Shown: one piece after another, positions 1 to 57,820 of the stretch
Numbering within the stretch: position 1 is the stretch's first letter
Layout of the letters: every line of letters begins with the position of its first letter
DNA from: Sedimentisphaerales bacterium
GTDB taxonomy: Bacteria; Planctomycetota; Phycisphaerae; Sedimentisphaerales; SM23-30
Direction of reading: 5' to 3'
DNA length: 64,000 nucleotides
NCBI GenBank assembly: GCA_963667715.1
Contig: OY763926.1
Location: 213,486 to 277,485 of the forward strand
The notes under the pieces: model-generated
What the model saw: the letters and a program-made list of their open reading frames with translations, nothing else
Told to the model about the DNA's origin: nothing
The model's database searches: none
Position numbers and translations under genes: made by a program

Positions 1-1
1 T

Positions 2-121
2 AGTGTTTTGCTTGTCGAAACTAATAAAATAATTAGACAATATGAATTGAAAGATAAAGATTTATCAGAACTCAAAAAATCAATCTTACAGAAAGCATTT
101 AGCGGTGAGTTAACTAAGTAG
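2..121 (+). pseudogene. hsdS: hsdS-like 3'-terminal fragment (SVLLVETNKIIRQYELKDKDLSELKKSILQKAFSGELTK*). Further copies end at ~355, ~589, 1577, ~1809 (frameshifted) and ~2042. The first copy could be the genuine end of an hsdS lying upstream of the window
   Basis: The translation ends in the ...LKKSILQKAFSGEL motif typical of the conserved C-terminal helix of type I specificity subunits. The fragment lies immediately upstream of hsdR. Its stop TAG lies inside the REP flank TAAGTAG. Confidence 0.5.
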
Positions 122-227
122 GACAAGCAAGATGCTTGTCAATTAATGAGTCTCGACGAAGTCGACACAATATTTGCCAGCATTTGCTGACAACACAAAA
201 AGTCAAGCAGGATGCTTGACCTACTTA
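115..227 (+). mobile_element. REP doublet (REPIN-like). Other copies at 349-461, 583-695, 1336-1448, ~1571-1683, ~1803-1915 and ~2036-2148
   Basis: TAAGTAG-GACAAGC-aagat-GCTTGTC ... GTCAAGC-aggat-GCTTGAC-CTACTTA. The two arms are reverse complements of each other. Two further hairpins lie in the spacer (TCGACgaaGTCGA and TTGTCAGCAttTGCTGACAA). Confidence 0.7.
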
Positions 228-713
228 TGAGAATTAGTGTTTTGCTTGTCGAAACTAATAAAATAATTAGACAATATGAATTGAAAGATAAAGATTTATC
301 AGAACTCAAAAAATCAATCTTACAGAAAGCATTTAGCGGAGAGTTAACTAAGTAGGACAAGCAGGATGCTTGACAATTAATAAGTTTCGACGAAGTCTGC
401 ACAATGTTTGTCAGCATTTGTTGACAATATAAAAAGTCAAGCAGGATGCTTGACCTACTTATGAGAATTAGTGTTTTGCTTGTCGAAACTAATAAAATAA
501 TTAGACAATATGAATTGAAAGATAAAGATTTATCAGAACTCAAAAAATCCATCTTACAGAAAGCATTTAGCGGAGAGTTAACTAAGTAGGACAAGCAAGA
601 TGCTTGTCAATTAATGAGTCTCGACGAAGTCGACACAATATTTGTCAGCATTTGCTGACAACGTAAAGAGTCAAGCAGGATGCTTGACCTACTTATGAAA
701 CCAAATTAACTAT

Positions 714-1331
714 ATGAATAATATATTTTACAATCCGGAGCTAAAGACAGACAGAAGCAGGCGGCATCTGCCGCACTGGCAGCAGGACGAGAAGCTGTAT
801 TTTGTTACTTTTCGATTAGCTGATTCAATACCGGCAGATGAACTGGCCCGGCTTGTAAAATTGCAGGAAGAATTTGAGCTTAACAATGTCAGGCCGTTCA
901 CTCCTGAGCAGGAGAAGCAATATTGTTATCTTTTCTACGAACAGATTAATAATTGGCTGGATAATTGTTACGGTGAATGTCTGTTGGAAAGAAGTGAAAA
1001 TGCTCAGATAGTAAAAAATGCTTTGGAGTATTTTGATGGTAAAAGATATCGGTTGGACCATTGGGTTATTATGCCCAACCACTTACACGTTATTCTTTTA
1101 TTAAATGAAGGAATAAACATTGGCGATATTACCCATAGCTGGAAATCGTATACTGGATTGCAGATTAACAAGCGAGAGGGCAGGACTGGCCCATTATGGC
1201 AGCATGAGTCATTTGACCATATAATCCGAAGTGACTTTTATCTTAATAAATATCGAGATTATATAATCGCAAACAAAATGAAAGCAAACAAAGCATTATT
1301 AAGTAGGTCAACCATCCTGGTTGACTCATAA
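714..1331 (+). CDS. REP-associated tyrosine transposase (RAYT) / IS200-like Y1 HUH transposase
   Basis: 205-aa ORF with an RRHLPHW N-terminal motif and an HUH motif in WVIMPNHLHVILL. It has a WQHESFDHIIR block and a C-terminal tyrosine motif, RDYIIANKMKA (compare YIxxNP of E. coli RayT). It is flanked by inverted REPs at 670-695 and 1336-1360. Confidence 0.8.
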   Translation: MNNIFYNPELKTDRSRRHLPHWQQDEKLYFVTFRLADSIPADELARLVKLQEEFELNNVRPFTPEQEKQYCYLFYEQINNWLDNCYGECLLERSENAQIVKNALEYFDGKRYRLDHWVIMPNHLHVILLLNEGINIGDITHSWKSYTGLQINKREGRTGPLWQHESFDHIIRSDFYLNKYRDYIIANKMKANKALLSRSTILVDS

Positions 1332-2167
1332 TTTATAAGTAGGACAAGCATCCTGCTTGTTAATCAATAAGTCTCGATGAAGTCGACACAATATTTGTCA
1401 GCATTTGTTGACAATATAAAAAGTCAAGCAAGATGCTTGACCTACTTATTTAGAATTAGTGTTTTGCTTGTCGAAACTAATAAAATAATTAGACAATATG
1501 AATTGAAAGATAAAGATTTATCAGAACTCAAAAAATCAATCTTACAGAAAGCATTTAGCGGTGAGTTAACTAAGTAGGACAAGCAAGATGCTTGTCAATT
1601 AATGAGTCTCGACGAAGTCGACACAATATTTGTCAGCATTTGTTGACAATATAAAAAGTCAAGCAAGATGCTTGACCTACTTATGAGAATTAGTGTTTTG
1701 CTTGTCGAAACTAATAAATAATTAGACAATATGAATTGAAAGTTAAATATTTATCCGAACTCAAAAAATCCATCTTACAGAAGCATTTAGCGGAGAATTA
1801 ACTAAGTAGGACAAGCAGGATGCTTGTCAATTAATAAGTTTCGACGAAGTCTGCACAATATTTGTCAGCATTTGTTGACAATATAAAAAGTCAAGCAAGA
1901 TGCTTGACCTACTTATGAGAATTAGTGTTTTGCTTGTCGAAACTAATAAATAATTAGACAATATGAATTGAAAGTTAAATATTTATCCGAACCAAAGAAT
2001 ACAATTTTACAGAAAGCATTTAGCGGTGAATTAACTAAGTAGGACAAGCATCCTGCTTGTCAATTAATAAGTCTCGACGAAGTCGGCACAATGTTTATCA
2101 GTATTTGTTGACAATATAAAAAGTCAAGCAGGATGCTTGACCTACTTATTTAGAATTAGGAAATGAT

Positions 2168-4546
2168 ATGAATGAGGCACAGACAAGGCATGATCTAATA
2201 GACCCGGCGTTGAAGGCTGCTGGTTGGGGAGTAGTTGAAGGCAGCCGTATTCGGGTGGAATATCCGATTACACAGGGGAGGCTGATCGGCCATGGCAGGC
2301 GAGCCAAGCCGTTGAGTGCTGACTATGTGTTGCAATATCGTAACCGTAACCTTGCAGTGGTTGAGGCTAAGAGCGACGAGGAAGGGTATAATGAGGGAGT
2401 TGGGCAGGCTAAGGATTATGCTGACCGTCTGAATATTCGCTTTACATATTCAACTAATGGTCTGGCGATTTACGGTATAGATATGGAGGAAGGTTTAGAA
2501 GGGATAGTTGCGAAATTTCCTGGTCCGGATGAATTATGGCAGATGACCTGGCCTGAGCCGGAGAGTGTGCTGGATATAGATAAGGCGAAGTGGCGTGAAA
2601 AGCTTTTTGCTGTGCCGTTTGAAGATAGGAGCGGTACCTGGCAGCCGAGATATTATCAGGAGAACGCTATTACCAAGGCCCTGGAAGCTGTTGCAGATGA
2701 TAAAAGACGTATTTTGCTGACATTGGCAACTGGTACCGGTAAGACAGCTATCGCCTTTCAGATAGCATGGAAGCTGTTTCACGCTAAATGGAACCTGAAA
2801 CGGGACGGGCAGCGAAGTCCCCGGATACTATTTCTGGCAGATAGGAATATATTGGCTGATCAGGCGTTTAACGCATTTAATGCCTTTGAAGAAGATGCAC
2901 TGGTAAGGATTGCACCGGATGAGATCAGGAAAAAGGGGAAAGTACCTAAAAACGGCAGCATATTCTTTACAATTTTCCAGACGTTTATGAGCGGGCCGGA
3001 AGATACGCCATATTTTGGTGAGTATCCAAAAGATTTCTTCGATTTAATTATTATAGATGAGTGTCATCGTGGTGGTGCTAATGATGAAAGTTCGTGGCGC
3101 GGAATTATGGATTATTTCAGTCCGGCGGTACAGCTTGGCCTGACGGCGACCCCTAAACGAGATGTTAATATTGACACTTATAAGTATTTCGGTGATCCGG
3201 TATATATCTATTCTCTGAAAAACGGTATTAACGATGGTTTTCTTACACCGTTTAAGGTCAAAGAGGTCGCTACCACTGGGGATGAGTATATCTATACCTC
3301 TGACGATACGATTATTGAAGGTGATATTGAAGAGGGCCGTACTTATACGATAGAAGAGCAGAATCGGATAATTGAGCTGATGGATGTTGAGCGTTTCAGA
3401 GTTCAGCAGTTTATGAAGATCATTAATCAGAGCCAGAAAACCCTGGTATTTTGTGCAACACAGCGTCATGCAGCGGCTGTGCGTGATCTTATCAATCAGA
3501 TTTCGACAAGCAGCAGTCCAAACTACTGTCATCGGGTAACCGCAGATGATGGTTCAATCGGTGAACAGCATTTAAGGGATTTTCAGGATAATGAAAAGAG
3601 TATACCAACGGTTCTGACAACTTCTCAGAAGCTTAGTACCGGTGTGGATGCCCCTGAGATACGTAATATCGTATTGCTGCGGCCAATTAACTCTATGGTA
3701 GAGTTTAAGCAGATCGTTGGCCGGGGGACGAGGCTGTTTGACGGTAAGGACTATTTTACCATCTTTGATTTCGTAAGAGCTCATGAGCATTTTAAAGATC
3801 CAGCCTGGGATGGTGAGCCGATCGATCCGGAACCGGCTGGGCCGGCAGAACCGAAACTGTGTAAGGTTTGTGGTCAGTGTCCGTGTATATGTCCAAAGCC
3901 GGAACCGGAGCTATGTCCGGATTGCGGGCAGTGGCCTTGTGTATGTGATAAGCCGTCAAAGAAAATGGTGCGTGTGAAGCTCTCTGACAGTAAGGTTCGT
4001 GAACTTGACTGTATGATAAAAACCAGCTTTTGGGACCCTACCGGTAAGCCAATATCAGCGGAAGAATTTATAAGAAAGCTGTTTGGTGATATACCAGCTA
4101 TGTTTGGTAATGAAGATGAGCTTAGAAAGATTTGGAGTCTGCCGGATACCAGAAGAAAACTGCTGGATGAGCTTAGCGAAAAAGGATATACCAGCGAACA
4201 GTTGTCAGATTTGAGTAAACTGGTCCATGGCGAGGATTGTGACCTGTATGATGTGCTGGCTTATGTGGCCTACCATAGAGATTTGGTGCCGAGACTGGAA
4301 CGAGCTGAGCGGGCTAAAATACATTTGGATTCTTATGATGTAAAACAACAGGAGTTTCTAAACTTCGTTTTGGAACAATATGTAAAAGTTGGTGTTGAAG
4401 AGCTTGATGAGGCTAAGTTGCCAGCACTGTTAGAACTTAAATATCGTGCTATTGCAGATGCAAAAACTGAATTGGGAGATATTAAAACGATACGAGAAAC
4501 GTTTATTGGATTTCAGGAGTATTTGTATTGGGTGAATGCGATGTAG
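2168..4546 (+). CDS. hsdR: Type I restriction enzyme R subunit (EcoEI/PRK11448-like)
   Basis: 792 aa. The N-terminal nuclease-type region reads EAQTRHDLIDPALKAAGW...DYVL...VVEAKS. SF2 helicase motifs are present: YYQENAI, ATGTGKT, DECHR, TATP. The C-terminus is EcoEI_R_C-like. A Cys-rich insert lies at about aa 565-595. Confidence 0.9.
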   Translation: MNEAQTRHDLIDPALKAAGWGVVEGSRIRVEYPITQGRLIGHGRRAKPLSADYVLQYRNRNLAVVEAKSDEEGYNEGVGQAKDYADRLNIRFTYSTNGLAIYGIDMEEGLEGIVAKFPGPDELWQMTWPEPESVLDIDKAKWREKLFAVPFEDRSGTWQPRYYQENAITKALEAVADDKRRILLTLATGTGKTAIAFQIAWKLFHAKWNLKRDGQRSPRILFLADRNILADQAFNAFNAFEEDALVRIAPDEIRKKGKVPKNGSIFFTIFQTFMSGPEDTPYFGEYPKDFFDLIIIDECHRGGANDESSWRGIMDYFSPAVQLGLTATPKRDVNIDTYKYFGDPVYIYSLKNGINDGFLTPFKVKEVATTGDEYIYTSDDTIIEGDIEEGRTYTIEEQNRIIELMDVERFRVQQFMKIINQSQKTLVFCATQRHAAAVRDLINQISTSSSPNYCHRVTADDGSIGEQHLRDFQDNEKSIPTVLTTSQKLSTGVDAPEIRNIVLLRPINSMVEFKQIVGRGTRLFDGKDYFTIFDFVRAHEHFKDPAWDGEPIDPEPAGPAEPKLCKVCGQCPCICPKPEPELCPDCGQWPCVCDKPSKKMVRVKLSDSKVRELDCMIKTSFWDPTGKPISAEEFIRKLFGDIPAMFGNEDELRKIWSLPDTRRKLLDELSEKGYTSEQLSDLSKLVHGEDCDLYDVLAYVAYHRDLVPRLERAERAKIHLDSYDVKQQEFLNFVLEQYVKVGVEELDEAKLPALLELKYRAIADAKTELGDIKTIRETFIGFQEYLYWVNAM

Positions 4547-5129
4547 GTTTGATGATGTTTTTTTATAGACGGGATAACTGCCCGGGTACGGGCTGGATTT
4601 TGGAGCCAGCTCCGATTTGTCGGAGACAGATTATGTTTGGTTTAAATATGTTTGGTAATGTTATACCTTCCTGGGCTTCGGGGGAGGAGAAGATTTTTTA
4701 TCCACAGATTTATTGTAATGGGTTCGCTGGGGCGAACAGGTGGTTGATTAATTGGCACAGATTTAAGAAGAATAATTTAGAAGAGGATTTCACGCAAAGA
4801 CGCGAGGTGCTTCGCACCCGCAAAGGAAGAAGAAGATTGCTAGGATGCGAGGATTATCAGGATAAGAAGAAGAGGAAGAGTTATTTCTCGCAGAGCTCGC
4901 GGAGGCGCAGAGGGAAGGAAATTTAATAATAAGAGTTTTAACGCGATGGTACTGAGAGTTGGTTGGCAGGTGTGGGTGTTAGTGAGTTTATGATTTGGTT
5001 GGAAAGTAAGGAAGAAGACTTAAGAATCCCGACGTGTATCGGGAAACTCTTGCGCGGGGAGATGGTTGGGCGAGGCTTATTAATCAAACTGAAGTTTGTA
5101 CTCTTAAAGCTTCGCGTTTTCTTTTTCCT
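4547..5129 (+). repeat. Mosaic intergenic cluster C1 (modules M1, a, f, g, h, j)
   Basis: Module a (CCACAGATT..GGTTCGC-n-GCGAAC..TTGATTAATT..CACAGATTTAAGAAG) is at 4701-4770. Module j (GGAAAGTAAGGAAGAAGACTTAAGAATCCCGACGTGTATCGGGAAACTCTTGCGCG) is at 5001-5056. Confidence 0.85.
4556..4699 (+). repeat. M1 element copy A (long form); candidate structured RNA/ssDNA element
   Basis: GGGATAAC, then hairpin GCCCGggtaCGGGC, then CTGGATTTT. Overlapping hairpins follow (GGAGCcaGCTCC and CTCCGAtttgTCGGAG), then CAGATT. The terminal hairpin is CCTTCC..GGGAGG followed by T6. Confidence 0.6.
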
Positions 5130-6632
5130 TTATGGGATAGTTATTATGTTTGTGGTGGAAGGGGTTGGGGTTGGCAGGTTGGATTTGCAATGTGGGCATT
5201 GGTTTTTGTTTAGCCATCTGCTTTTGCCGCAGTTGTGGCATATTGTTAGTGGGTAGTGGTTGAAGATGAGGTATGTTGCCAGTCCGGCGATATTGAATGA
5301 GTAGATCAGTATTGCCCAGCCGGCGGTTTTGATGATAGATCTTTGTCGGTTGCGAGTGTGGGCCAGCATAATAAAAACGCATATGACAGAGGCGGCGCGG
5401 AGGTACCATAGTGTCCAGAACGGTAGAACGGTGCCGGGTAAGTTGTGAGAGTTTATGGGGAGAATGAGATAGCCGGGTATGGTAGCGAAAAAGTAAGGTT
5501 GTATGTTGGCAGGTGATCTGCGGGTCCATAGTTTGTTATATTGGTGTATTAGCTGGGCAGAGCGTAAGTCGCCGGAGAGCTTATATAGTCGGTGCGGGTT
5601 TTTGCTGACAATATTGGTAGTGCGGCCGAGCTCTTTATTGGTTATGTATTTTATGATTAGTTCGTCGGATTCCTGTGGGGTGATGCCGCACTTGAATCTT
5701 GGGTCTTCGATGGTATTGATGTAGATGTTTTTGCGGTTTATGTCAGTGTATAGATTGTATGCCTGCTGGCTGTAGTCGATGTTGTCGAGGGCGATGTGGG
5801 TTATGATGGGCTGGGTGTTGGTGAGTTTAACAAAAGCCGGAGATATGTCATTGTAAACAACAAATAATCTGTCGGGAACGTGTATTGACTCTTTTTTGAC
5901 ATTGTCAGCGGTGAAGATCTGCCAGTCGATGATCTTGCTGGTTAGGCTGGCGGGAGTGAGCTGTATACGCTCTCTGGTGCTGAAGTCTGTCTGGTATATG
6001 CTTTTTCCGTCGCAGCTGAGCATGAGCATATGTCTTTTGTTGTTCTGGTCTTTTATCGCCCAGAAATATTTTTCGTTCATACTGAATCTGCCGGCGTCGG
6101 CTGAGTTGGCGGCGAAGCCGTTTATGCCGTAGTGGCCTACAATTTGTTTGTCCAGATATCCGGTAAGGGTCTGGTCATTATCGTTATAGCACCAGATGAC
6201 GATACCGTTTTCGGTTTCAGTTGGTATGAGTTTTTCGTCCAGGGTGTTGCCATTGTATTGGTAGCCGCCCGCCATGATTCTGTACTTGCGCTCTGGTGCG
6301 GAGTATTGGAGTATGTCGGCGTCGGTTAGGTGGTCTACAGGTGATAAGGTGTCCTGCTGTGGGTCGTATATTTCGTAGGTGTTTTTGTTGTCTAGCATTT
6401 CTGAGATAAGCAGCTGGCCGGTGGTTGTATAGCCGATTTGTGAGCAGGAAACCTTCCACTGGTTCTCAGTGATATCTATTAGTGGCGATAGTGCCTTATG
6501 TGATGGTGGGCTATAGCGATAGCCAGTGTAGTTTGCAATAATGATTATGCAAATACAAATGATGATGTATATAGCTATTGAGAATATAAGGTTTCGACAT
6601 ATAACGCTGTAGTATTTTAATATGTTAAACAT
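5130..6632 (-). CDS. Hypothetical membrane protein: N-terminal TM anchor, large extracytoplasmic domain, C-terminal TM bundle and CxxC..CxxC zinc ribbon
   Basis: Long ORF. I moved the start from the track's TTG (6653) to ATG 6632 (MFNILKYY...). The C-terminus reads ICHNCGKSRWLNKNQCPHCKS. It is the last gene of the gntR/ABC cassette. Confidence 0.6.
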   Translation of the reverse strand: MFNILKYYSVICRNLIFSIAIYIIICICIIIIANYTGYRYSPPSHKALSPLIDITENQWKVSCSQIGYTTTGQLLISEMLDNKNTYEIYDPQQDTLSPVDHLTDADILQYSAPERKYRIMAGGYQYNGNTLDEKLIPTETENGIVIWCYNDNDQTLTGYLDKQIVGHYGINGFAANSADAGRFSMNEKYFWAIKDQNNKRHMLMLSCDGKSIYQTDFSTRERIQLTPASLTSKIIDWQIFTADNVKKESIHVPDRLFVVYNDISPAFVKLTNTQPIITHIALDNIDYSQQAYNLYTDINRKNIYINTIEDPRFKCGITPQESDELIIKYITNKELGRTTNIVSKNPHRLYKLSGDLRSAQLIHQYNKLWTRRSPANIQPYFFATIPGYLILPINSHNLPGTVLPFWTLWYLRAASVICVFIMLAHTRNRQRSIIKTAGWAILIYSFNIAGLATYLIFNHYPLTICHNCGKSRWLNKNQCPHCKSNLPTPTPSTTNIITIP

Positions 6633-6648
6633 GTTAGTCTCTACTTTG

Positions 6649-6700
6649 CTCAAACTGAGTGTTGGTGAGTTTGAGATGATTTAATGATTAGTTGAATCAG
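6649..6700 (+). repeat. Solo left-end fragment of the X (CTCAAACTG) element
   Basis: CTCAAACTGagtgttggtGAGTTTGAG followed by TTAATGATTAGTTGAATCAG. This matches the left part of X1/X2. Confidence 0.5.
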
Positions 6701-6716
6701 CCTGGTCAGGTTGGTG

Positions 6717-7409
6717 TTAGTATTCTCTTGTTTTTAGTTCTTGCAGAATGATCGGGATGGTCATTATCAGCCATGCGAGAAAGTATGCTGCCTTTATTGT
6801 ATTGCTTTGAGAGTTGTGTATTACTACTGTGGAGAATAGTACCATGGTCGCGGGTATGGCTCTTATGAATCGGTTTTTTGCGAGTAGGCCCATAATTGCG
6901 GTTGCGGTATAGCATACCAGCGGCATAAGGCTATAGAGCAGGCCCCAGAGATAATAGCTGGTGTTGAGTGGTATTGGGATTCGAGCGGCGAGCATGTTGC
7001 AAGCGGCGATCCAGCTGAGTTGGGCGACGATGTAGATTAGCAGCATGGCGGTGAAAGTCATGGTCACGGCCTGTCTGGTTCTTGATATTGGTCGGTACAT
7101 TATGAACTTCCAGTTGCCTTTGAGGCCGGGAAGCCAGAACTGTACGAGTGCTATGAGAACAGCTGCAATTGAGAAGAAAACGATAAGTATTTCGTTAAAG
7201 CCTGATAATTTGGAGACGATGTAACCTGTTAGCCTTAAGTTGTGCTCGGTATCGCCAGTGTAATATTCGAGGATATTGTTCATGTAGTCGTTGATACGGA
7301 AATATCTGCACATGTCCAGGCAATAGAGGTAGAATAATATGCCAGCTGCAATAAGTATGGGTAATATGAAGCGGAGCTCCTTGTTGATTATTGCTATATA
7401 TTTTTTCAT
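6717..7409 (-). CDS. ABC-2-type permease-like polytopic membrane protein
   Basis: 230 aa. It starts MKKYIAIINKELRFILPILIAAG and has about 6 hydrophobic segments. It lies downstream of the ABC ATPase. Confidence 0.6.
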   Translation of the reverse strand: MKKYIAIINKELRFILPILIAAGILFYLYCLDMCRYFRINDYMNNILEYYTGDTEHNLRLTGYIVSKLSGFNEILIVFFSIAAVLIALVQFWLPGLKGNWKFIMYRPISRTRQAVTMTFTAMLLIYIVAQLSWIAACNMLAARIPIPLNTSYYLWGLLYSLMPLVCYTATAIMGLLAKNRFIRAIPATMVLFSTVVIHNSQSNTIKAAYFLAWLIMTIPIILQELKTREY

Positions 7410-7460: not shown

Positions 7461-7624
7461 TGTTATACATTTTTTATTGAAAGTCTACTATAAGGCTGAT
7501 TATTCCTTTTATAAGGAAGAAGACTAAAGAACCGGCTAATCGAGCCTATGGTTAAAAGATAAAGTCTAAATTTTTTGTAACTTTCATTTTATAATTCTTG
7601 TTACGTTTTGCAATGTAAGGCTAT

Positions 7625-7654
7625 GAATCACAAGCAAGATGCTTGTGCTACTTA
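7625..7654 (-). repeat. Class-1 REP S1
   Basis: GAATCACAAGCaagatGCTTGTGCTACTTA; on the minus strand this reads TAAGTAG-CACAAGC...GCTTGTG. It lies 1 nt from the stop of the ABC ATPase gene. Confidence 0.75.
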
Positions 7655-7655
7655 A

Positions 7656-8579
7656 TTAGGTTTCCCATGAGAATAGTTTTCTTTTGGTTGGCGAAATTGT
7701 GTATTCGATGAATTGGTCTTCCAGTGTCATTTGTGCTTCTGAATGGAGCTGTGCATTGTTGGTTGAGCACCAGTTATTGAGCGTGTCGTCGGAAACAGAT
7801 ACCAGTACAGCCTCAATCATATTGCCGTCCTTTCGACAATGGAGCATGCCGGGAATTTGTACTTCGTTTTCTGGAGTCTGGTTGAATTTTAGGACGACTT
7901 TTCTTACAGCGTTGCGGAATTCTTCCATAGTGCAGCGGGCACGCAGCTGGCCGTTATCGAGAATGGCTATGTTGTCAGCTACGCGTTCGACGTCGCTGAG
8001 TATATGGCTGGAGAACAGGATAGTTCGTCCTTCACGCTGGATGAGTTTAATTATGCCCTCGAGGAACTGACGTCTGACAACTACATCGAGGCCGAGGGTA
8101 GGGTCGTCCATGATAAGTATTTCGGGGTCTGGCGCGAGTACCATAGCGAGAGAGACCTGGGCCCGCTGGCCGTTAGAAAGTTTTCTGATCTTTTTCTTTT
8201 TCGATAGTTCAAAGAACTCGATCATTTCTTCAAACAGGTTATTATCCCAGCGTTGTGGGTAGAATGCAGCCTGATATTTTCTGAGAGCTTCGATCGACAT
8301 GCTATCGAAAAGTTTGTGTCCTTCGTTAATGTAGCCGATACGTGCGATCAGGTCGGGGGTGAGGTTGTTGCTGTCTTGGCCGTCGATGTAACAGCGGCCG
8401 CTGGTTGGTTTAGCGAATCCGAGCAGCATACGAATGGTAGTGCTTTTGCCTGCACCGTTTCTGCCGAGCAAGCCGAAGATGCTGCCTTTTGGGATCTGTA
8501 AGTTCAGATGATCGACCACTGGGGTAGTGCCGTAATATTTGGTAAGGTTCTGTGTTTCGATTGCGTATTCGCTAGTCAT
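7656..8579 (-). CDS. ABC transporter ATP-binding protein (ABC-2/DrrA-like)
   Basis: Walker A GLLGRNGAGKST, signature LSNGQRAQVSLA, Walker B ILIMDDPTLGLD. The start is set at MTSEYAIE, giving an 8-nt overlap (ATGACTAG) with the gntR stop. Confidence 0.85.
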   Translation of the reverse strand: MTSEYAIETQNLTKYYGTTPVVDHLNLQIPKGSIFGLLGRNGAGKSTTIRMLLGFAKPTSGRCYIDGQDSNNLTPDLIARIGYINEGHKLFDSMSIEALRKYQAAFYPQRWDNNLFEEMIEFFELSKKKKIRKLSNGQRAQVSLAMVLAPDPEILIMDDPTLGLDVVVRRQFLEGIIKLIQREGRTILFSSHILSDVERVADNIAILDNGQLRARCTMEEFRNAVRKVVLKFNQTPENEVQIPGMLHCRKDGNMIEAVLVSVSDDTLNNWCSTNNAQLHSEAQMTLEDQFIEYTISPTKRKLFSWET

Positions 8580-9264: not shown

Positions 9265-9587
9265 ATCCACGGATTTTTTTTAAGGGGTTCGCTACCGGGA
9301 ACTGGTGATTGATTAATTTTCACAGATTTAAGAGGGAGAGATTAAGAGGGAATTTTACCATGAAGTTCAGGGAGGTCATGAAGGGGGAAGAATTAATATA
9401 AGAGTTTAACGCAAGGGCGCGAAGGCGCAGAGAGATGGTTGGAGATGTAGGTTTTTATGGAGTTTGTGGGTTGGTTGGAGAGTAAGGAGGAAGGCTTGAG
9501 TATCCCGATTAAGGGGGCGTAGAAGAGAAAGTCATATTAGTGTGACTTTCTTGTCGGATAGTTTGTCATGTTATGAGATGTAATATT

Positions 9588-9620
9588 AAGAATCACAAGC
9601 GAGGACGCTTGTGCTACTTA
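9588..9620 (-). repeat. Class-1 REP S2
   Basis: AGAATCACAAGCgaggacGCTTGTGCTACTTA. The TAA stop of the 9618-10388 gene is the TAA of TAAGTAG. Confidence 0.75.
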
Positions 9621-10388
9621 GGGGATGGTTATTATGTCTTGTACTTTGTATTTTTTTAGTAGGTCGGTGATGGTGGTTGAAGTTTTTATTTTTTTTAGGC
9701 CGTCGTTGAATTTTTCGAGCTTGGAGTTTATGTCTTTAGCTTTTTTTGAGAATGCGATGAATAGCTCTTTATTGTCTAGTATTGGTTTGACGATCTCTAC
9801 TTTTTCCTTTGACGGGGCCATGACCTTGTCGTTTTCGATGCAGTAAAAAGCGACAAGCGGGTCGACGATAATGACGTGCGCTTTGCCGGCGAGTAGGTTC
9901 TGGATGTTTGACAGGTCGTCCTTGGCTTCGATCTTGGTGAGATAGTCGGCGTTGTCGATCTCCTTAGTGTTGATATAGCCGGCGACGACACCGATTTTGT
10001 ATGGTTTCAGCTCTTCGACTTTACCGGTATAGTTGAACTCGGTGGTCTTAAGCTTCATGAAGGTGAGTGGGCCGCAGATGATGGGGTCTGAGAAGATAAA
10101 CTCCGATTCGAGGTCTTTATTGTAATATTCGGGGTAATAAGCGTCTGCGTTACCGATCCGTGCGAGATCGACGCACTTTTCCCATGGCAGGAAGAAGACC
10201 TGGACGTCTGATTCGCCGGCGGCTTGATATGCGGCCTTGATGATCTCGGTAACGAACCCGTTTTCAGGGATGTTTTTGCCGACGTAAGGCTGCCAGTCGA
10301 GGGAGGTTAGCTTAATCTTTTCGGCTGAAGCGAATGTGGTTAATGTAAATATGGTCAGGAAAGTAGCGAATATTTTTGTCAGGTTCAT
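9618..10388 (-). CDS. Periplasmic substrate-binding protein, family 3 (PBPb-like)
   Basis: Signal peptide MNLTKIFATFLTIFTLTTFASA. LTSLDWQPYVG..GFVTEIIKAAYQAAG is typical of family-3 solute-binding proteins. Confidence 0.65.
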   Translation of the reverse strand: MNLTKIFATFLTIFTLTTFASAEKIKLTSLDWQPYVGKNIPENGFVTEIIKAAYQAAGESDVQVFFLPWEKCVDLARIGNADAYYPEYYNKDLESEFIFSDPIICGPLTFMKLKTTEFNYTGKVEELKPYKIGVVAGYINTKEIDNADYLTKIEAKDDLSNIQNLLAGKAHVIIVDPLVAFYCIENDKVMAPSKEKVEIVKPILDNKELFIAFSKKAKDINSKLEKFNDGLKKIKTSTTITDLLKKYKVQDIITIP

Positions 10389-11316
10389 AATTTTGGTCCG
10401 TAAAAGGTTAAAGGTAAAAAGTTAAAGGTTTTATGTTTACCTGTATTATGTATCGTGTGATATTTGGCGGGACTTATGGCGGTTGGTGGGAGATGGTTGA
10501 TTATGGGGCGGCTGGTTGTGGGTTGGAGTGAGTAGGGTTATGGGTAAGTGGTTTGTTGATGGGAGGTTATTGGGATTGATAAGGTGAGAGCGGTGTATGG
10601 TGGGGCGGGTGGGTTATCGGACGGATTAGGGTGGGAATAAATGATTGATATGGGTGGGTGAATGTGGATAATATGTATGATTGTAAAAGGTAAGAGTAGT
10701 TGTCCACAGATTTGTTGAAAGGGGTTTGCTGCCGCAAACGCTGATTGATTAATTTACGCGGATTTAAGAAGAGGAGTAATTAAGAAATATATTTACCATG
10801 AAGTTCATGGAGATCTTAGTGACGGTCGAGCCGCAACCAAAAGTTTTATGTAAGAAGAGAATTAAGAGTTTAACGCAAAGTCGCCAGGTCGCAAAGAGTT
10901 GGTTGGCGATTGGGGGGGGGGAGATGATGGCAGTATGAAGAGTTTTTTGGGGAACCACAGATGAACACGGATGAACACCGATAAGGGGAAGTTGGGGAGA
11001 TACAAGATACATAGCAGCCGTAAAGGGGGGAAGAAGGAAATGGCTAGGATGCGAGGGTTTTTAGGATAAGAAGATTAAGAGAAGAGTTGGTTCTCGCAGA
11101 GGCGTGAAGATTTGGTTGGAGATGTGGGCGTTGGGGAGTTTGTGGTTTTGTTGGAAAGTAAGGAAGAAGACTTAAGAATCCCGATGTGTAACGGGAAACT
11201 CTTGCGCGAAGGGTTGGTTGGGAAGCTGCTTAGGAGACGCAAGATTTTGCGTCTCTACGTGGGGGGATGGTTTTTTTTTGGAAGTAGATAAACGAGAATG
11301 AATAGAAGAAACGAAG
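10389..11316 (+). repeat. Mosaic intergenic cluster C3 (AAAGGTA repeats, G/T-rich tract, a, b, c, g, h-variant, j, class-2 REP)
   Basis: Module a is at 10703-10772 with a compensated stem, GTTTGC..GCAAAC. GGTTGG/GGGTGG-rich DNA spans ~10440-10700. Confidence 0.8.
11233..11258 (-). repeat. Class-2 REP R2-1
   Basis: GGAGACGCAAgattTTGCGTCTCTAC; the minus strand reads GTAG-AGACGCAA..TTGCGTCT. Confidence 0.7.
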
Positions 11317-13591: not shown

Positions 13592-14524
13592 TCAGGCGTT
13601 TGAGCCGGAGCCTAGTTTGTATGCGGCACCGACGGCCAGGGCTGCAAAGAGCAGGTCCATGATGCCGAGGCTTTGGATGAGTCCTTCTTTTATGATAGAA
13701 GCTTTGTCGGCGTCTATGCCCTGTTCTCTGGTGAATGAGTATGTAAGGCGTGCGTTATGGATCTTTTCTTCGTCGGTCCATGCGCCGGCAATGGCACCAG
13801 CTTTAATAGTTATATCGGTAATCTGCTGTCTTTCGTCATCGTTGAGTTCTGTGCCGTTAGAGAATTTATCGCGTAGATTATCGTCCATGAGAGTGAATAT
13901 AGCGACGCCGAGCAGGTTCTCCTGATCGTCGAGACTGGCGAGTATCTCCCGGTCGGTCATAGCTGAGACGGGTTTTTCGGCATATTCATCGTATATCCAG
14001 TTGAGTACCAGGACCTTGCCGCCGATAATGGCGCAAAGGGCGATGACGGCGGCAGTTACACCGAGTTTTTGTGATGGCTCGGCACCGCCGAAAAGGATAC
14101 CGAAGCCGGAGAGGACGCCTACTCCGATAGCGATGTATCCGATCTCATAGCCGGTGAATTTAGCGATAAGAGCCCATATGAACGCGCCGATAAGGGCACC
14201 GACGCAGCTGCAAATAACAGAAGCGGTGAACTTTGAGGCGCTGGCAGCGGCGGCAGAGGATGGGCCGGCAGGTTTGGGCGGCTCGAACGCTTCGAGTCCA
14301 GAAGTGGCAGGTTCCGATTTCGGGGCGGGGCGTTCGTGCTCGATAGTTTCACCTTCGTCTAGAGATGAGAGCATGTTACGCAGCTCGTTCTCTTCTTTGG
14401 GCTGCTGAGGTGGCTGAGGGACGACCAAAACAGAATTACAATCAGGACATTTAACCTTATGCTCAGCGTATTTCATTGGTACTTTGAGCTTTTTACTACA
14501 GTTGTTGCAAGAGAATCTTATCAT
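13592..14524 (-). CDS. Hypothetical zinc-ribbon membrane protein
   Basis: N-terminal CNNC..17..CPDC ribbon, then a Pro/Ala-rich linker, glycine-rich TM segments and a terminal TM. Confidence 0.6.
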   Translation of the reverse strand: MIRFSCNNCSKKLKVPMKYAEHKVKCPDCNSVLVVPQPPQQPKEENELRNMLSSLDEGETIEHERPAPKSEPATSGLEAFEPPKPAGPSSAAAASASKFTASVICSCVGALIGAFIWALIAKFTGYEIGYIAIGVGVLSGFGILFGGAEPSQKLGVTAAVIALCAIIGGKVLVLNWIYDEYAEKPVSAMTDREILASLDDQENLLGVAIFTLMDDNLRDKFSNGTELNDDERQQITDITIKAGAIAGAWTDEEKIHNARLTYSFTREQGIDADKASIIKEGLIQSLGIMDLLFAALAVGAAYKLGSGSNA

Positions 14525-16854: not shown

Positions 16855-16970
16855 GATTTTTTTGGATGGGATAACCGACCGCCTGTGGCGGTCTGGATTT
16901 TAGCGGCAGATTGAGTGGGGCGGAATATAGATTGTTGAATGTTTACATTCTCCGGGGGCGGGGGAGAAAG
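16855..16970 (+). repeat. M1 element copy C (short form)
   Basis: GGGATAACC, then GACCGCCtgtGGCGGTC, then CTGGATTTT-AGCGG-CAGATTG. Terminal hairpin TTCTCC..GGAGAA. Confidence 0.6.
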
Positions 16971-17368
16971 TAGAAGAGGAGAATTATGAGTTTAAGGAAA
17001 GGGCGCGAAGACGCAAAGATTTGGTTGGCAATTTTGGGGTGGTTGGAGATGGTGGCATTGAGAAGATTTTTTACCACAGAGGGCACAGAGAACACAGAGA
17101 AGAAGAATTTTTTGCAGGGATAGAGGATAAGAAGATGATAATCAGGATAGCGAATTAAGGTTATTGACCTGCAAAGTTCGTGTGCTTTTAACGAGAATGT
17201 AAAGTGCGATTATTTAGCAAGTTAGATCGAATGTGAAAAATAATGACACATAAAAAACAAGAAAATGATGGATAGTAGTGCAGAGGGAAGAAAATATAAT
17301 AATAAAATGTCAGGTTGTTGTGTAACTTATATACCAGGTTATTTGAGTTGGTTGGGGAAGTTATATTG

Positions 17369-17410
17369 AGAATCACAAGTCCCGATGTGCTTCGGGACTT
17401 GTGATTCTTA
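17369..17410 (-). repeat. Class-1 REP S4 (long stem, nested mini-hairpin, no GTAG)
   Basis: AGAATCACAAGTCCCGAtgtgcTTCGGGACTTGTGATTCT. Confidence 0.65.
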
Positions 17411-17436
17411 GGAGACGCAATATTTTGCGTCTCTAC
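17411..17436 (-). repeat. Class-2 REP R2-3
   Basis: GGAGACGCAAtattTTGCGTCTCTAC. Confidence 0.7.
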
Positions 17437-17450
17437 GGGGGGGGGAGATA

Positions 17451-17481
17451 TAGGCCCGGACAGTATTGGTGGCCGGGCCTA
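17451..17481 (-). terminator. Stem-loop 8 nt after the LRR gene stop (no U-run)
   Basis: TAGGCCCGG-13 nt-CCGGGCCTA, a perfect 9-bp stem. Confidence 0.4.
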
Positions 17482-17487
17482 TGTGTT

Positions 17488-19575
17488 TTATTGGAGCCAG
17501 TTTTGGGCGAGGGTTGCGAAGTCCTGGATGTTTATTGTGCCGTCGGGGGCTAGGTCGCAGTCGAGGCAGGTTGGGTTGGATTCGCAATCGGTGAGCCAGA
17601 AGGCGGCCATGTTTGCCAGGTCGGCAATAGTGGCGGGCGGGCAGATTTCGTCAACTTCTATGACTATGCCGGGATTGTTGGCTATGATCAGCGGCAGGTC
17701 ACGGTTATAGCTTTCGCAGGTAATAGGGTTACCTGTGAGTGATAGTCGGGTAAGGTTAGTTAGTTTGGTAAGAGCAGAGATGTCGGTTATGTTATTGTTG
17801 TCAAGGTATAGCTCTATTAGGCTTGGCATCTCAGCTAGTATTGATAGGTCAGAGATACTACAATTTTTTGCATATAGACTATGTAGCCTTATAGCATATT
17901 CGAGTCCGGTAAGGTCAGAGATATCATAGCCTGAAATCCTCAGATAAAAAGCCATGAGCATGTCACAGCTAGTCAGATCTGTTACCCCTAGAGTGTCTGA
18001 TACAATATCCTTTAAGAATGGGTCATTGAACATATCTGTGACCGGGTCAGTACAATTGCAAGTATAGTGTCGTTCGAAGTACATATATGGGTTGTTGGAA
18101 AGGATTGTGCTGACATCCTGAAAATAATGATCACATGAAATTGGATTCATCTTAGTCATAAGATATCTTAGATTGGAAAGCGAAGTTAAAGGCTCCAGGT
18201 CGGTAATCTGGTTATCGTACAGGTACAGGTATTCAAGCGAATCAAGTTCGGAGAGCGGAGTGAGGTCGGTTACCATATTATGAGATAGATGAAGTTCGTA
18301 TAGTCTGTGGGCATGTTCCAGACCGGTAAGGTCTGTGATGCCTGCCGAGGACACGGTCAAATAGTAGAGATTTCGCATATCCCAGGCAGTTGGGTTTGTA
18401 ATACCAATTTCATTTTCTACAGCGGCTTTCAGGACAGGATCATTGAAGAGAACCGGCTCTGCTTCCTGACCGTCAGGCAGGCAGCTGTAATCTTCGTATA
18501 GAATTTTGAAATAGTCTGGATTGTTGGCTGTGAGGATAGGTATTATTTCGTTAATTGATGAACAGTAAAGCTGGTTATTGTTCAGGTTAACGAATATTAG
18601 ATTTGTCATTGCGGATAACGGGGCGAGATCGTGGATGTTGTTGTTCCTGAAGCCTAATACTTCAAGGTTAGGCAGGCCGGCTAATGGGGCAATATCGGAT
18701 ATTTGGTTGTCATAGGCGTATATAGAACGTAGAGATGTTATTGAAGACAGGAAGCTGAGGTCCGAGATGTTGCAATTATCCATATCTAAAAACTGCAGTT
18801 CTGATAGTGACTGAAGAATATTATAGTTAGTTATGTTAGGATTTTCAGATATATTTAAGGAAGAAATTCGGTCAAAGTTTAATAAAAAGCTGATGTCGGT
18901 AAGGTTACAGTCAGCAATATAAAGGGTAAATAGATTCTCCATATGACATATGGGCGTGAAGTCGGTTATCGGATTGCCACTTAGACCTACAGAGCTTAGT
19001 TCCATACTCGAAAGGAAGCTGATATCAGAGATATTACAGTATGCAATTCCAATGTTTTCGAGTAGTGGCAGGGTAGGCAGAATAGAGAAATCGGTTATAG
19101 GGTTACTGCCCAGAAAAAGTTTGGATAAGTTTGGCAGGTTGGAGAGGAAGCTGATGTCCGAGATATTACAGTCACCAATGTTTAATAAAGAGAGGCTGGT
19201 AATATTACCGAGGTTTTCAGGGTTAGTTATATTATTACCAGATAAGTATAGATATTTTAGGTTAGTAAGCGATGTGATAGGAGATATGTCGGTTATGTTA
19301 TAGTTGTCAAGGTGCAGGCTTTCAAGATTGAGGGCATATTCGAGACCGGTGAGATCGGTTATTTCTACTGAAGCGATACGGTATAAATCTGTAAGTAAGA
19401 GCATGTCGCTTTCGGTTGGGTCTGTAATGCCAAGCTGTATTTCGACCGTTGATTTCAGGTTGGGGTCGGTGAAGGTGACCGGGGTATCAGGTGCGGCCAG
19501 GGCCGGGCTGAAGGTTGAGGTGAAAAGCTGGACAAAAACAGATAGGAATACGATAGCTAAACAGTTCTTTTTCAT
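17488..19575 (-). CDS. Secreted leucine-rich-repeat (internalin-like) protein with C-terminal dockerin-like module
   Basis: Start set at MKKNCLAIVFLSVF (signal peptide). Many 22-aa LRRs (LxxLxLxxNxIxDIsxL). The C-terminus reads CDLAPDGTINIQDFATLAQNWLQ. Confidence 0.85.
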   Translation of the reverse strand: MKKNCLAIVFLSVFVQLFTSTFSPALAAPDTPVTFTDPNLKSTVEIQLGITDPTESDMLLLTDLYRIASVEITDLTGLEYALNLESLHLDNYNITDISPITSLTNLKYLYLSGNNITNPENLGNITSLSLLNIGDCNISDISFLSNLPNLSKLFLGSNPITDFSILPTLPLLENIGIAYCNISDISFLSSMELSSVGLSGNPITDFTPICHMENLFTLYIADCNLTDISFLLNFDRISSLNISENPNITNYNILQSLSELQFLDMDNCNISDLSFLSSITSLRSIYAYDNQISDIAPLAGLPNLEVLGFRNNNIHDLAPLSAMTNLIFVNLNNNQLYCSSINEIIPILTANNPDYFKILYEDYSCLPDGQEAEPVLFNDPVLKAAVENEIGITNPTAWDMRNLYYLTVSSAGITDLTGLEHAHRLYELHLSHNMVTDLTPLSELDSLEYLYLYDNQITDLEPLTSLSNLRYLMTKMNPISCDHYFQDVSTILSNNPYMYFERHYTCNCTDPVTDMFNDPFLKDIVSDTLGVTDLTSCDMLMAFYLRISGYDISDLTGLEYAIRLHSLYAKNCSISDLSILAEMPSLIELYLDNNNITDISALTKLTNLTRLSLTGNPITCESYNRDLPLIIANNPGIVIEVDEICPPATIADLANMAAFWLTDCESNPTCLDCDLAPDGTINIQDFATLAQNWLQ

Positions 19576-23276: not shown

Positions 23277-23306
23277 AAACTTATTGACCGATGGTGAATA
23301 AGTTTA

Positions 23307-23351
23307 GAAGTTAGGAATTAGAAATTAGAAATTAGAAATTAGAAATTAGAA
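23307..23351 (+). repeat. Octamer microsatellite (GAAATTAG)n, about 5-6 units
   Basis: GAAGTTAGGAATTAGAAATTAGAAATTAGAAATTAGAAATTAG. Confidence 0.85.
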
Positions 23352-23384
23352 AACCCCGAAATATGATTATTTCGGGGTTTTTTG
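23352..23384 (+). terminator. Rho-independent terminator of ilvBN
   Basis: AACCCCGAAAT-atgatt-ATTTCGGGGTT followed by a T-run. Confidence 0.85.
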
Positions 23385-34319: not shown

Positions 34320-34691
34320 TATTATTTATCCGTAGATTATTTTTGAGGTGTTTGCTGGGGCGAACGGCTTATTGATTAATTTGCACAGATTTAAGAATGA
34401 AATTATAGATATGAATGACCCTGGTGTGTTTTTGCATCAGGGTTATTTTTTTTTGGGGAAAATAGAATTAAGAGGAAGATTTAACGCAAGGTCGCTAAGA
34501 CGCAAAGATTTGGTTGGCGGTATTGGGGATTTGTGAGTTTGTGACTTTGGTTGGGGAGTAAGGAAGAAGACTAAAGAATCCCGATGTGCATCGGGAAATG
34601 GCCGGAACTCTTGCGTGAAGAGATGGATGGCGGGATGGGGGATTAGGGAGTTTGCTGGGATTAGTAGAGACGCAAAATCTTGCGTCTCTAC
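34320..34691 (+). repeat. Mosaic intergenic cluster C9 (a, c-variant, j, class-2 REP)
   Basis: Module a is at 34329-34397 with stem GTTTGC..GCGAAC (wobble). Module j contains TCCCGATGTGCATCGGGA. Confidence 0.8.
34664..34691. repeat. Class-2 REP R2-6 (GTAG on both strands)
   Basis: GTAGAGACGCAAaatcTTGCGTCTCTAC. The TAG stop of the 34688-37417 gene is the TAG of the minus-strand GTAG. Confidence 0.75.
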
Positions 34692-44257: not shown

Positions 44258-44319
44258 AGTAAGTAATAAGTAACAAGTAACAAGTAACAAGTAACAAGTA
44301 ACAAGTAACAAGTAACAAG
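44258..44319 (+). repeat. Heptamer microsatellite (GTAACAA)n, about 6 perfect plus 2 degenerate units
   Basis: GTAAGTAATAAGTAACAAGTAACAAGTAACAAGTAACAAGTAACAAGTAACAAG. Confidence 0.85.
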
Positions 44320-44355
44320 TTCAGGTTCCGCCCTTTGGGCGAGGCTGATTAATTA

Positions 44356-57648: not shown

Positions 57649-57721
57649 TTGTTTATAACCATATTAATGGTCAGAGTTATTATAATTTTGATTGGTTGTG
57701 TGGTCAAAGGAATAATGATTA

Positions 57722-57820
57722 AGTGCAAAGGTGAAGAAGTGCAAAGGTGAAGAAGTGCAAAGTGCGAAGTGCGAAGTGCAAAGTGCGAAGAGGGAAGAGG
57801 GAAGAGAGGAGGGGGGGAAG
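57722..57820 (+). repeat. Purine-rich microsatellite block (GTGCAAA/GTGCGAA heptamers, GGTGAAGAAGTGCAAA, GAGGGAA)
   Basis: AGTGCAAAGGTGAAGAAGTGCAAAGGTGAAGAAGTGCAAAGTGCGAAGTGCGAAGTGCAAAGTGCGAAGAGGGAAGAGGGAAGAG. Confidence 0.85.

Follow-up and report, generated by a model that had tools for sequence, protein, structure and literature searches.

The closest described counterparts of the locus treated here are ordered clusters of inverted doublets of repetitive extragenic palindromes (REPs), termed REPINs, which occur together with genes for REP-associated tyrosine transposases (RAYTs). In Pseudomonas fluorescens SBW25, 16 such clusters consist of tandem REPIN repeats "including the flanking sequences" (Bertels & Rainey 2011, PMC3116915). 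REPIN clusters adjoin each of the three SBW25 RAYTs, and the largest cluster comprises four REPINs and one extra REP in just over 700 bp (PMC3116915). GTAG repeats are present in the Planctomycetes-Verrucomicrobia-Chlamydiae (PVC) superphylum, and GTAG heads act as stop codons (Di Nocera et al. 2013, PMC3733652). Here, a 64,000-nt stretch of DNA from a Sedimentisphaerales bacterium (contig OY763926.1; hereafter the window) was analyzed, the first 2.16 kb of which carry a tandem array of hairpin doublets and 3' fragments of hsdS, the specificity gene of type I restriction-modification (R-M) systems, directly upstream of the restriction gene hsdR. The region is very probably a RAYT-REPIN locus embedded in a type I R-M operon, in which an hsdS 3' fragment has been co-amplified. 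The main value of the analysis lies in this correction, namely that an apparent amplification of a gene end should be read as a RAYT-REPIN cluster.

Tandem repeats were detected with Tandem Repeats Finder (TRF), and the hsdS fragments (S1 to S6) and REPINs (R1 to R7) were numbered from left to right (Table 1). Two blocks were found, one at positions 1-698 with a period of 234 bp (3.0 copies, 94% matches, score 1291) and the other at 1336-2159 with a period of 232 bp (3.5 copies, 93% matches, score 1406), and the 640-bp gap between them (696-1335) carries the gene for a 205-aa RAYT. The unit consists of an hsdS 3' fragment of approximately 121 nt and a 113-nt REPIN; the units are arranged head to tail at lengths of 232-235 bp, and the mean column identity across the six aligned units is 95%. 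Thus, seven 113-bp hairpin doublets and six interposed segments of 119-122 nt (S1 being clipped) are contained in positions 1-2159. A previous interpretation made from the letters alone (the sequence-only reading) described at least six 234-bp units filling 2.1 kb. Six head-to-tail units are indeed present, but the array is split by the RAYT gene, whose product has an HUH motif and a catalytic tyrosine; that reading overlooked this gene, on which the understanding of the locus depends. The statement that the window begins inside the array was borne out, position 1 falling 7 nt inside a unit, whereas the array end, placed 10 nt before the hsdR ATG, was found 8 nt before it (2159 versus 2168), the last REPIN ending at 2148. 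The partial unit at 2149-2159 marks the right edge of the duplicated segment. The array therefore comprises seven REPINs over at least 2.16 kb with its left side open, and its GC content is 34%, compared with approximately 44% in the rest of the window.

In its organization, the array resembles the SBW25 clusters, in which inverted REP doublets are repeated in tandem with their flanks (f1-REPIN-f2, Fig. S7 of PMC3116915) at the site of a cognate single-copy RAYT. The SBW25 unit, a near-identical succession of flank, REPIN, and flank, was also found here, with periods of 232-234 bp and 93-94% matches. In contrast to SBW25, the co-repeated flank is a recognizable coding 3' end (hsdS), giving six pseudo-open reading frames (pseudo-ORFs), the cluster is larger, the RAYT gene is located inside the cluster and not beside it, and the host belongs to the PVC group, with a RAYT distant from the proteobacterial ones (E = 1.6e-4 to 4ER8). 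The GTAG-tagged REP families (PMC3733652) are similar in that an unpaired GTAG head stands by a stem-loop, dimers with the GTAG termini outside are tandemly reiterated with flanking DNA, and the TAG of GTAG serves as the stop codon of the flanking ORF. The REP of the window, GTAGGACAAGCA-nnn-TGCTTGTC, is that of a Sedimentisphaerales-type RAYT clade, and the likeness to PMC3733652, which describes 24 GTAG families, is one of architecture. The sequence-only reading had not seen the phenomenon described; given the published tandem clusters of REPINs with their flanks (PMC3116915, PMC3733652), every element of that finding has a precedent, and the locus is best seen as a further instance, large and orderly, of something already described. 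It adds its size, a flank recognizable as a gene fragment, a RAYT gene enclosed by the array, and a location in a type I R-M system. The locus also documents a RAYT/GTAG-REPIN system in Sedimentisphaerales-type Planctomycetota, and its readable duplication junction, together with a variant mosaic that records later recombination, makes it a natural specimen for the formation of ordered REPIN clusters.

The REP motif GTAGGWCAAGCAnnnTGCTTGWC, allowing up to three mismatches, matched the window 22 times, against 0.01 matches expected by chance from shuffled sequences, and all but one of the matches lie within positions 1-2160. Each hairpin has an unpaired GTAG head, a stem of 8-9 bp, and a 3-nt loop; two inverted hairpins with their GTAG heads outermost form a doublet whose inverted arms are 24-38 nt long. 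As single-stranded DNA, the doublets fold at -21 to -27 kcal/mol (z = -4.8 to -7.9 versus shuffles), while the tail segment folds no better than shuffles (z = 0.06). The second part of the unit had previously been described as a 113-bp doublet of inverted hairpins, which agrees with the seven doublets found, and the label "REPIN-like" can be raised to that of true REPINs in view of the cognate RAYT in the middle of the array and the GTAG doublets flanking its relatives. Judged from their sequence, the doublets would be the REPINs of the RAYT inside the array. Three types of them were distinguished, of which type C has a flipped left loop. The left REP loop is AAG or AGG in R1-R3, R5, and R6. 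In R4 and R7 it reads TCC, which complements the AGG loop of the right arm exactly, so that in these copies the loop is inverted in place with the stem unaltered.

The 205-aa ORF is predicted to be a RAYT (TnpA_REP), which is clearly its best family. The NCBIfam RAYT model NF047646 (REP_Tyr_transpos) matched it at E = 6e-21 with 74.8 bits (cutoff 80), far above the 14.7 bits of the NCBIfam IS200 model, and Pfam Y1_Tnp (PF01797) gave 22.8 bits (cutoff 23). In a search of solved structures, E. coli TnpA_REP (4ER8) was the only real match, with the HUH motif (pnHlHvil / peHmHciw) and the catalytic tyrosine motif (rdYIiaN / vdYIyiN) both in register. The gene is present in one copy in the window and is flanked by REPINs on both sides (R3 and R4); no tnpB-like ORF adjoins it among the ORFs of the window. 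It shares with E. coli TnpA_REP/RayT and its REPs and bacterial interspersed mosaic elements (BIMEs) the HUH/Y1 fold with conserved HUH and catalytic tyrosine residues, GTAG-headed hairpins as REPs, and a REP-flanked gene. Unlike the E. coli enzyme, the putative RAYT of the window is approximately 45 residues longer in the stretch that separates its first strand from the HUH motif, and it falls under the NCBIfam cutoff.

A scan of a genome collection revealed 108 RAYT homologues in Planctomycetota, Verrucomicrobiota, Kiritimatiellota, and beyond, the closest of which (57-65% identity) are found in Sedimentisphaerales/Phycisphaerae metagenome-assembled genomes (MAGs). GTAG hairpins are located within 300 nt on both RAYT flanks at 48 of the 64 homologue loci with enough flanking sequence and on at least one flank at 55 of the 64, compared with only one of 94 control segments taken 3.5-4 kb away. 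The RAYTs of the relatives are flanked by a matching GTAG doublet architecture, the stem sequences of which vary between genomes; one locus, L006, carries a REP sequence identical to that of the window. Moreover, tandem REP arrays (period 44-243 bp, 2-9 copies) were found no more than 300 nt from the RAYT in approximately 20 of 80 loci, and an array next to the RAYT can therefore be regarded as the norm in this family. A screen of 26 REP arrays for captured gene ends by ORF overlap was too noisy in GC-rich genomes, with L006 as the one clear case, albeit without REPs, and an exact-pattern metagenome scan for the tail/REP junction gave no match.

The repeated flank corresponds to the last 37-40 codons or so of an hsdS gene, and its sequence identifies it as the putative C-terminal helix of HsdS. 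The in-frame tails encode peptides ending in ..LVETNKIIRQYELKDKDLSELKKSILQKAFSGELTK, and their stop codon (ORF 8..121) is supplied by the TAG within TAAGTAG, which belongs to the GTAG head with which the left hairpin starts, as the sequence-only reading had proposed for its TAAGTAG left arm. A large protein search returned HsdS C-termini ending in ..EQQ.IV.KLDAL..L.ELKKSILQKAFSGELT, for example, ..SLKEQQTIVQKLDALNAETQKLEIIYQQKINDLEELKKSILQKAFSGELT; PF01420 is present in one of these HsdS-type matches (P0004), and the source annotation (JGI) labels several of them S subunit. The PF01420 profile, suggested earlier as a check, did not score fragments of 37-66 aa, giving no match to the 47- and 66-aa ORFs (Pfam, E <= 1); this is a limit of the test and not counter-evidence because the fragment lacks the target recognition domain (TRD) covered by the model. 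The short peptide also had no match in Pfam, NCBIfam, PDB (phmmer), or plasmids (tblastn). The earlier assignment of the first part of the unit to the HsdS C-terminal helix thus holds for the in-frame copies, but not for units 5 and 6 (119 and 120 nt), in which frameshifts prevent the full peptide from being encoded. Co-amplification of a gene terminus and a REPIN as one unit, as had been proposed, is supported by the common junction of GAATTAG with TGTTTTGC in every unit.

Table 1. Features of the window and positions of Y1 genes in related R-M loci (positions refer to the window unless a locus is given)
Feature	Position	Strand	Remarks
hsdS 3' fragment S1	1..114	+	5' part clipped by the window start; in frame, ends in ..KSILQKAFSGELTK and stop
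REPIN R1, type A	115..227	.	two inverted GTAG-headed REP hairpins and two inner hairpins
hsdS 3' fragment S2	228..348	+	121 nt, frame intact; starts at the junction TGAGAATTAG / TGTTTTGC
REPIN R2, type B	349..461	.	by motif and alignment
hsdS 3' fragment S3	462..582	+	121 nt, frame intact
REPIN R3, type A	583..695	.	flanks the RAYT gene on the left
RAYT gene (predicted), 205 aa	714..1331	+	HUH motif MPNHLHVIL; catalytic Tyr in YRDYIIAN
Degenerate REP GTAGGTCAACCATCCTGGTTGAC	1303..1325	+	overlaps the 3' end of the RAYT ORF; folding z = -4.2
REPIN R4, type C	1336..1448	.	left loop TCC; flanks the RAYT gene on the right
hsdS 3' fragment S4	1449..1570	+	122 nt, frame intact; starts TTTAGAATTAG / TGTTTTGC
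REPIN R5, type A	1571..1683	.	by motif and folding
hsdS 3' fragment S5	1684..1802	+	119 nt, two 1-nt deletions, frameshifted
REPIN R6, type B	1803..1915	.	by motif
hsdS 3' fragment S6	1916..2035	+	120 nt, one 1-nt deletion and substitutions, frameshifted
REPIN R7, type C	2036..2148	.	best-folding copy; arms wholly complementary, loop included
Terminal partial unit TTTAGAATTAG	2149..2159	+	same 11 nt as at the start of unit 4; GAAATGAT and then the ATG of hsdR come next
hsdR, 792 aa	2168..4546	+	EcoAI/FtnUII-family type I restriction subunit; NF046051, 789 bits
Dispersed singlet REP GTAGCACAAGCATCTTGCTTGTG	7629..7651	-	closely related type; more heads at 9617, 23442, and 47779, all -
Y1 gene	L084 57-512		upstream of hsdR, same strand
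Y1 gene	L099 4048-4506		upstream of hsdR, same strand
Y1 gene	L101/L112 9457-9915		upstream of hsdR, same strand
Y1 gene	L115 1012-1464		upstream of hsdR, same strand
Y1 gene	L158/L160 9386-9898		upstream of hsdR, same strand
Y1 gene	L159 2869-3381		upstream of hsdR, same strand

The R-M setting was examined in 80 metagenomic loci (L081-L160) whose HsdR proteins are 66-76% identical to that of the window. In nine of them, an HsdS ending in ..ELKKSILQKAF[AS]GELT.. is encoded directly upstream of hsdR, which indicates that hsdS followed by hsdR is a native order in this R-M family, with an HsdS type to which the repeated fragment corresponds; the array would accordingly be positioned between hsdS and hsdR. 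No intact hsdM or hsdS and no inverted hsdS copy were found in the window. Repeated tails were absent from the related R-M loci, since none of the 52 loci carrying the HsdS tail has more than one copy, and the amplification is therefore a local event. Because S5 and S6 are frameshifted and the tail is single-copy in these relatives, the hsdS fragments are non-functional passengers, and the 42-aa "proteins" called there are duplicated hsdS debris. In a Verrucomicrobia MAG (L018, 2838-10620), the order is hsdR-hsdM-hsdS, three REPINs (GTAGCGGGAGC...), RAYT, and one REPIN, with the RAYT immediately downstream of hsdS. No report of an association between a RAYT and a type I R-M system was found in a literature search.

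The course of the amplification can be read from the junctions and from the variants. Every unit starts with T(GA/TTA)GAATTAG followed by TGTTTTGC, and the last REPIN is likewise trailed by TTTAGAATTAG; this one common junction points to one founding segmental duplication and subsequent amplification. The tails fall into type a (units 1-4, differing by two synonymous changes only) and type b (units 5-6, with a common 1-nt deletion and four substitutions), and in combination with the REPIN types the mosaic reads aA, aB, aA, the RAYT gene, aA, bB, bC, a pattern that requires units to have been exchanged to the left as well as to the right of the RAYT gene. Within a unit, the segment R3-RAYT-R4 stands where one REPIN would otherwise be. 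A possible course of events starts from an ancestral order hsdS-REPIN-RAYT-REPIN-hsdR, which is proposed because L018 has the order hsdS-REPINs-RAYT-REPIN and hsdS directly precedes hsdR in the R-M relatives. A single segmental duplication may then have occurred, one of its breakpoints falling within hsdS and the other 11 nt past the downstream end of a REPIN; a pre-existing direct repeat of approximately 10 nt, TNAGAATTAG, perhaps mediated it. Following this duplication, homology-driven unequal crossing-over, replication slippage, and gene conversion could have multiplied and rearranged the units to the left and right of the RAYT gene, and REPIN-by-REPIN recombination may have allowed a unit to contain either the short form (REPIN) or the long form (REPIN-RAYT-REPIN).

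Several points weigh against the interpretation of the region as a RAYT-REPIN locus within an R-M operon or against its consequences. The RAYT scores slightly under the curated cutoffs in both NCBIfam and Pfam. The presumed upstream hsdM/hsdS and the left boundary of the array lie outside the window, whose first position already falls within a unit. Outside the array, just approximately five REPs of the array type occur in 62 kb, all of them singlets, so that the REPINs may not form an actively spreading population. Either the duplication or the RAYT cassette may have come first. With regard to hsdR, an effect on its expression, suggested in the sequence-only reading together with variable array length, would be argued from E. 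coli REP biology; sigma-70-like sites were fewer than in shuffles in a promoter scan, and the hits resembling terminators coincide with the REP hairpins, most of them on the minus strand. These promoter and terminator signals are uninformative as to hsdR transcription.

The slot upstream of hsdR is also occupied in the relatives. Among the 80 hsdR-relative loci, nine Y1 hits were found in 918 kb, eight of which precede hsdR by 59-111 nt in the same orientation (Table 1) and thereby fill the slot 5' of hsdR in which the window has its RAYT. All eight stand alone as IS200-type Y1_Tnp genes of 150-170 aa (92-102 bits), with their own flanking short palindromes; they represent three sequence types that are 37-67% identical to one another and 16-18% identical to the RAYT of the window. 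Y1-bearing loci are interleaved with Y1-free loci, with HsdR proteins up to 93% identical, and the hsdS-hsdR slot of the relatives also houses many unrelated cargo genes. This recurrence would most simply be read as a recombination hotspot that has the conserved 3' end of hsdS and 5' end of hsdR as its limits. It is rather improbable that the slot in EcoAI-family loci is a recurrent, position-specific home of Y1/HUH genes and palindromes. If targeting or selection rather than a cargo hotspot were the cause, Y1 proteins or hairpin arrays would modulate hsdR expression, and the seven-REPIN array of the window would be an expanded, tunable version of the arrangement with Y1 upstream of hsdR.

REPs and BIMEs of E. 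coli attenuate transcription and stabilize upstream mRNA. In addition, a REP within approximately 15 nt of a stop codon reportedly lowers translation of the upstream gene, an effect attributed to work by Liang, Rudd, and Deutscher from 2015, and the array puts a REP directly on an hsdS-type stop codon. By analogy with these enterobacterial REPs, the roughly 2 kb that separate the presumed hsdS from hsdR would form hairpins as transcript or DNA and would likely weaken transcriptional coupling to hsdR. It could be argued from these effects, from the seven REPINs between the presumed hsdS and hsdR, and from the recurrence of Y1/HUH genes with palindromes in the identical slot of the R-M family that the array is a selected regulatory device, namely a tunable attenuator or insulator of hsdR against hsdM/hsdS whose copy number serves as a contingency switch. 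This is unlikely, however, since repeated tails are absent from all 52 related R-M loci, no plus-strand terminator or promoter signal stands out, and a slot holding many unrelated cargo genes fits a recombination hotspot better. Furthermore, the copies are not kept homogeneous, and their frameshifts and 5% divergence suggest decay rather than maintenance. Weakened coupling to hsdR would be a by-product of the RAYT-REPIN cluster and not a selected device. In the type-b tails, the substitutions create a promoter-like match, TAGACA-17-AATATT (9 of 12), at 1723-1751 and 1955-1983, which is absent from units 1-4; units 5 and 6, which bear it, are the two nearest hsdR.

Some related loci show further duplications near RAYTs. 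In L005, a Sedimentisphaerales MAG, a RAYT-REP cassette just upstream of hsdM lies between the two copies of a 61-nt direct repeat (95% identical, 9866-9926 and 10728-10788), one of which spans the hsdM start codon and the first 57 nt or so of the gene, and this constitutes a second case of a type I R-M gene end duplicated around a RAYT; the locus also carries hsdS (4156-5673), an IS3-like transposase pair (6091-7297), and dnaA (16957-18393). In L006, a 168-bp unit without REP, made up of the final 46 nt of an ORF of 368 codons and downstream DNA, is repeated 2.5 times at 14017-14444, 3.4 kb from the RAYT. Two tandem arrays of approximately 192 bp in 1.9 copies (7546-7907 and 9409-9771) lie upstream of a distant RAYT homologue in L079; each begins 29 nt inside the end of an ORF of approximately 172-175 codons and may represent another gene end co-repeated with hairpins.

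The array might also have been built by the RAYT itself if, at the replication fork, it cleaved REPs on the two sister strands and transferred strands between them, in which case the cluster would directly record RAYT activity and not host recombination. The concentration of arrays beside RAYTs, both in approximately 20 of the 80 loci and in P. fluorescens SBW25 (PMC3116915), the hsdM repeat around the cassette of L005, and the loop flips between REP copies would be in line with such an activity. On the other hand, the junction lies 11 nt outside a REPIN and inside hsdS, not at a REP boundary or GTAG head, and the REP-free gene-end duplication of L006 indicates that host mechanisms alone suffice in this lineage; construction of the array by the RAYT is therefore considered doubtful. 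Nor is TnpA_REP known to have a duplication activity.

An assembly artefact, affecting the array or its copy number, is quite improbable. The window begins inside the repeat and perhaps also at the end of a contig, a place at which assemblers handle tandem repeats badly, and 234-bp repeats at 93-95% identity are hard for short reads. However, the approximately 5% of column differences form a structured mosaic with derived changes common to units 5 and 6, which collapse or over-expansion would not yield, the array encloses a unique gene, the RAYT, and borders on unique sequence to its right, and independent assemblies of related genomes show RAYT-flanking tandem REP arrays. The least credible proposal is a silent-cassette store for specificity switching: phase-variable type I loci such as pneumococcal SpnD39III/ivr possess inverted TRD-bearing cassettes and a tyrosine recombinase, and although the window likewise has several partial hsdS copies beside a type I system, with the gene of a DNA-breaking enzyme among them, an hsdS shufflon was rejected on anatomy, and the locus is not a member of that class, because the fragments comprise the conserved C-terminal helix only and lack a TRD, all are direct repeats whose recombination alters copy number only, the adjacent and sole enzyme gene is of the HUH/Y1 type and not a tyrosine or serine recombinase, and no inverted hsdS copy is present in the window.

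Outside the RAYT-REPIN cluster, the window contains dispersed singlets of a closely related REP (GTAGCACAAGC..., Table 1) and a second family of GTAG-headed hairpins (GTAGAGACGCAAAATCTTGCGTC) with heads at 11258, 13500, 17436, 20744 (-), and 34664-34691, beside which no second RAYT is visible in the 64 kb. The GTAG head is on the minus strand in nearly all dispersed REPs of both families. The only Rfam match, a sub-threshold one between a single REPIN and a plant miRNA precursor (38 bits versus a gathering score of 130), was taken as a generic hairpin match. The GC skew of the window is positive in every 2-kb bin (0.04 to 0.46, mostly 0.2-0.4), which is unusually strong and monotonic. Heptamer tandem repeats occur at 23304-23352 (TTAGAAA, 7 copies), 44261-44320 (AAGTAAC, 8.6 copies), 57721-57797 (AAGTGCA, 9.4 copies), and 61427-61457 (AAGTGCA, 4.4 copies), and the first AAGTGCA array lies within a more complex 16/21-nt array.

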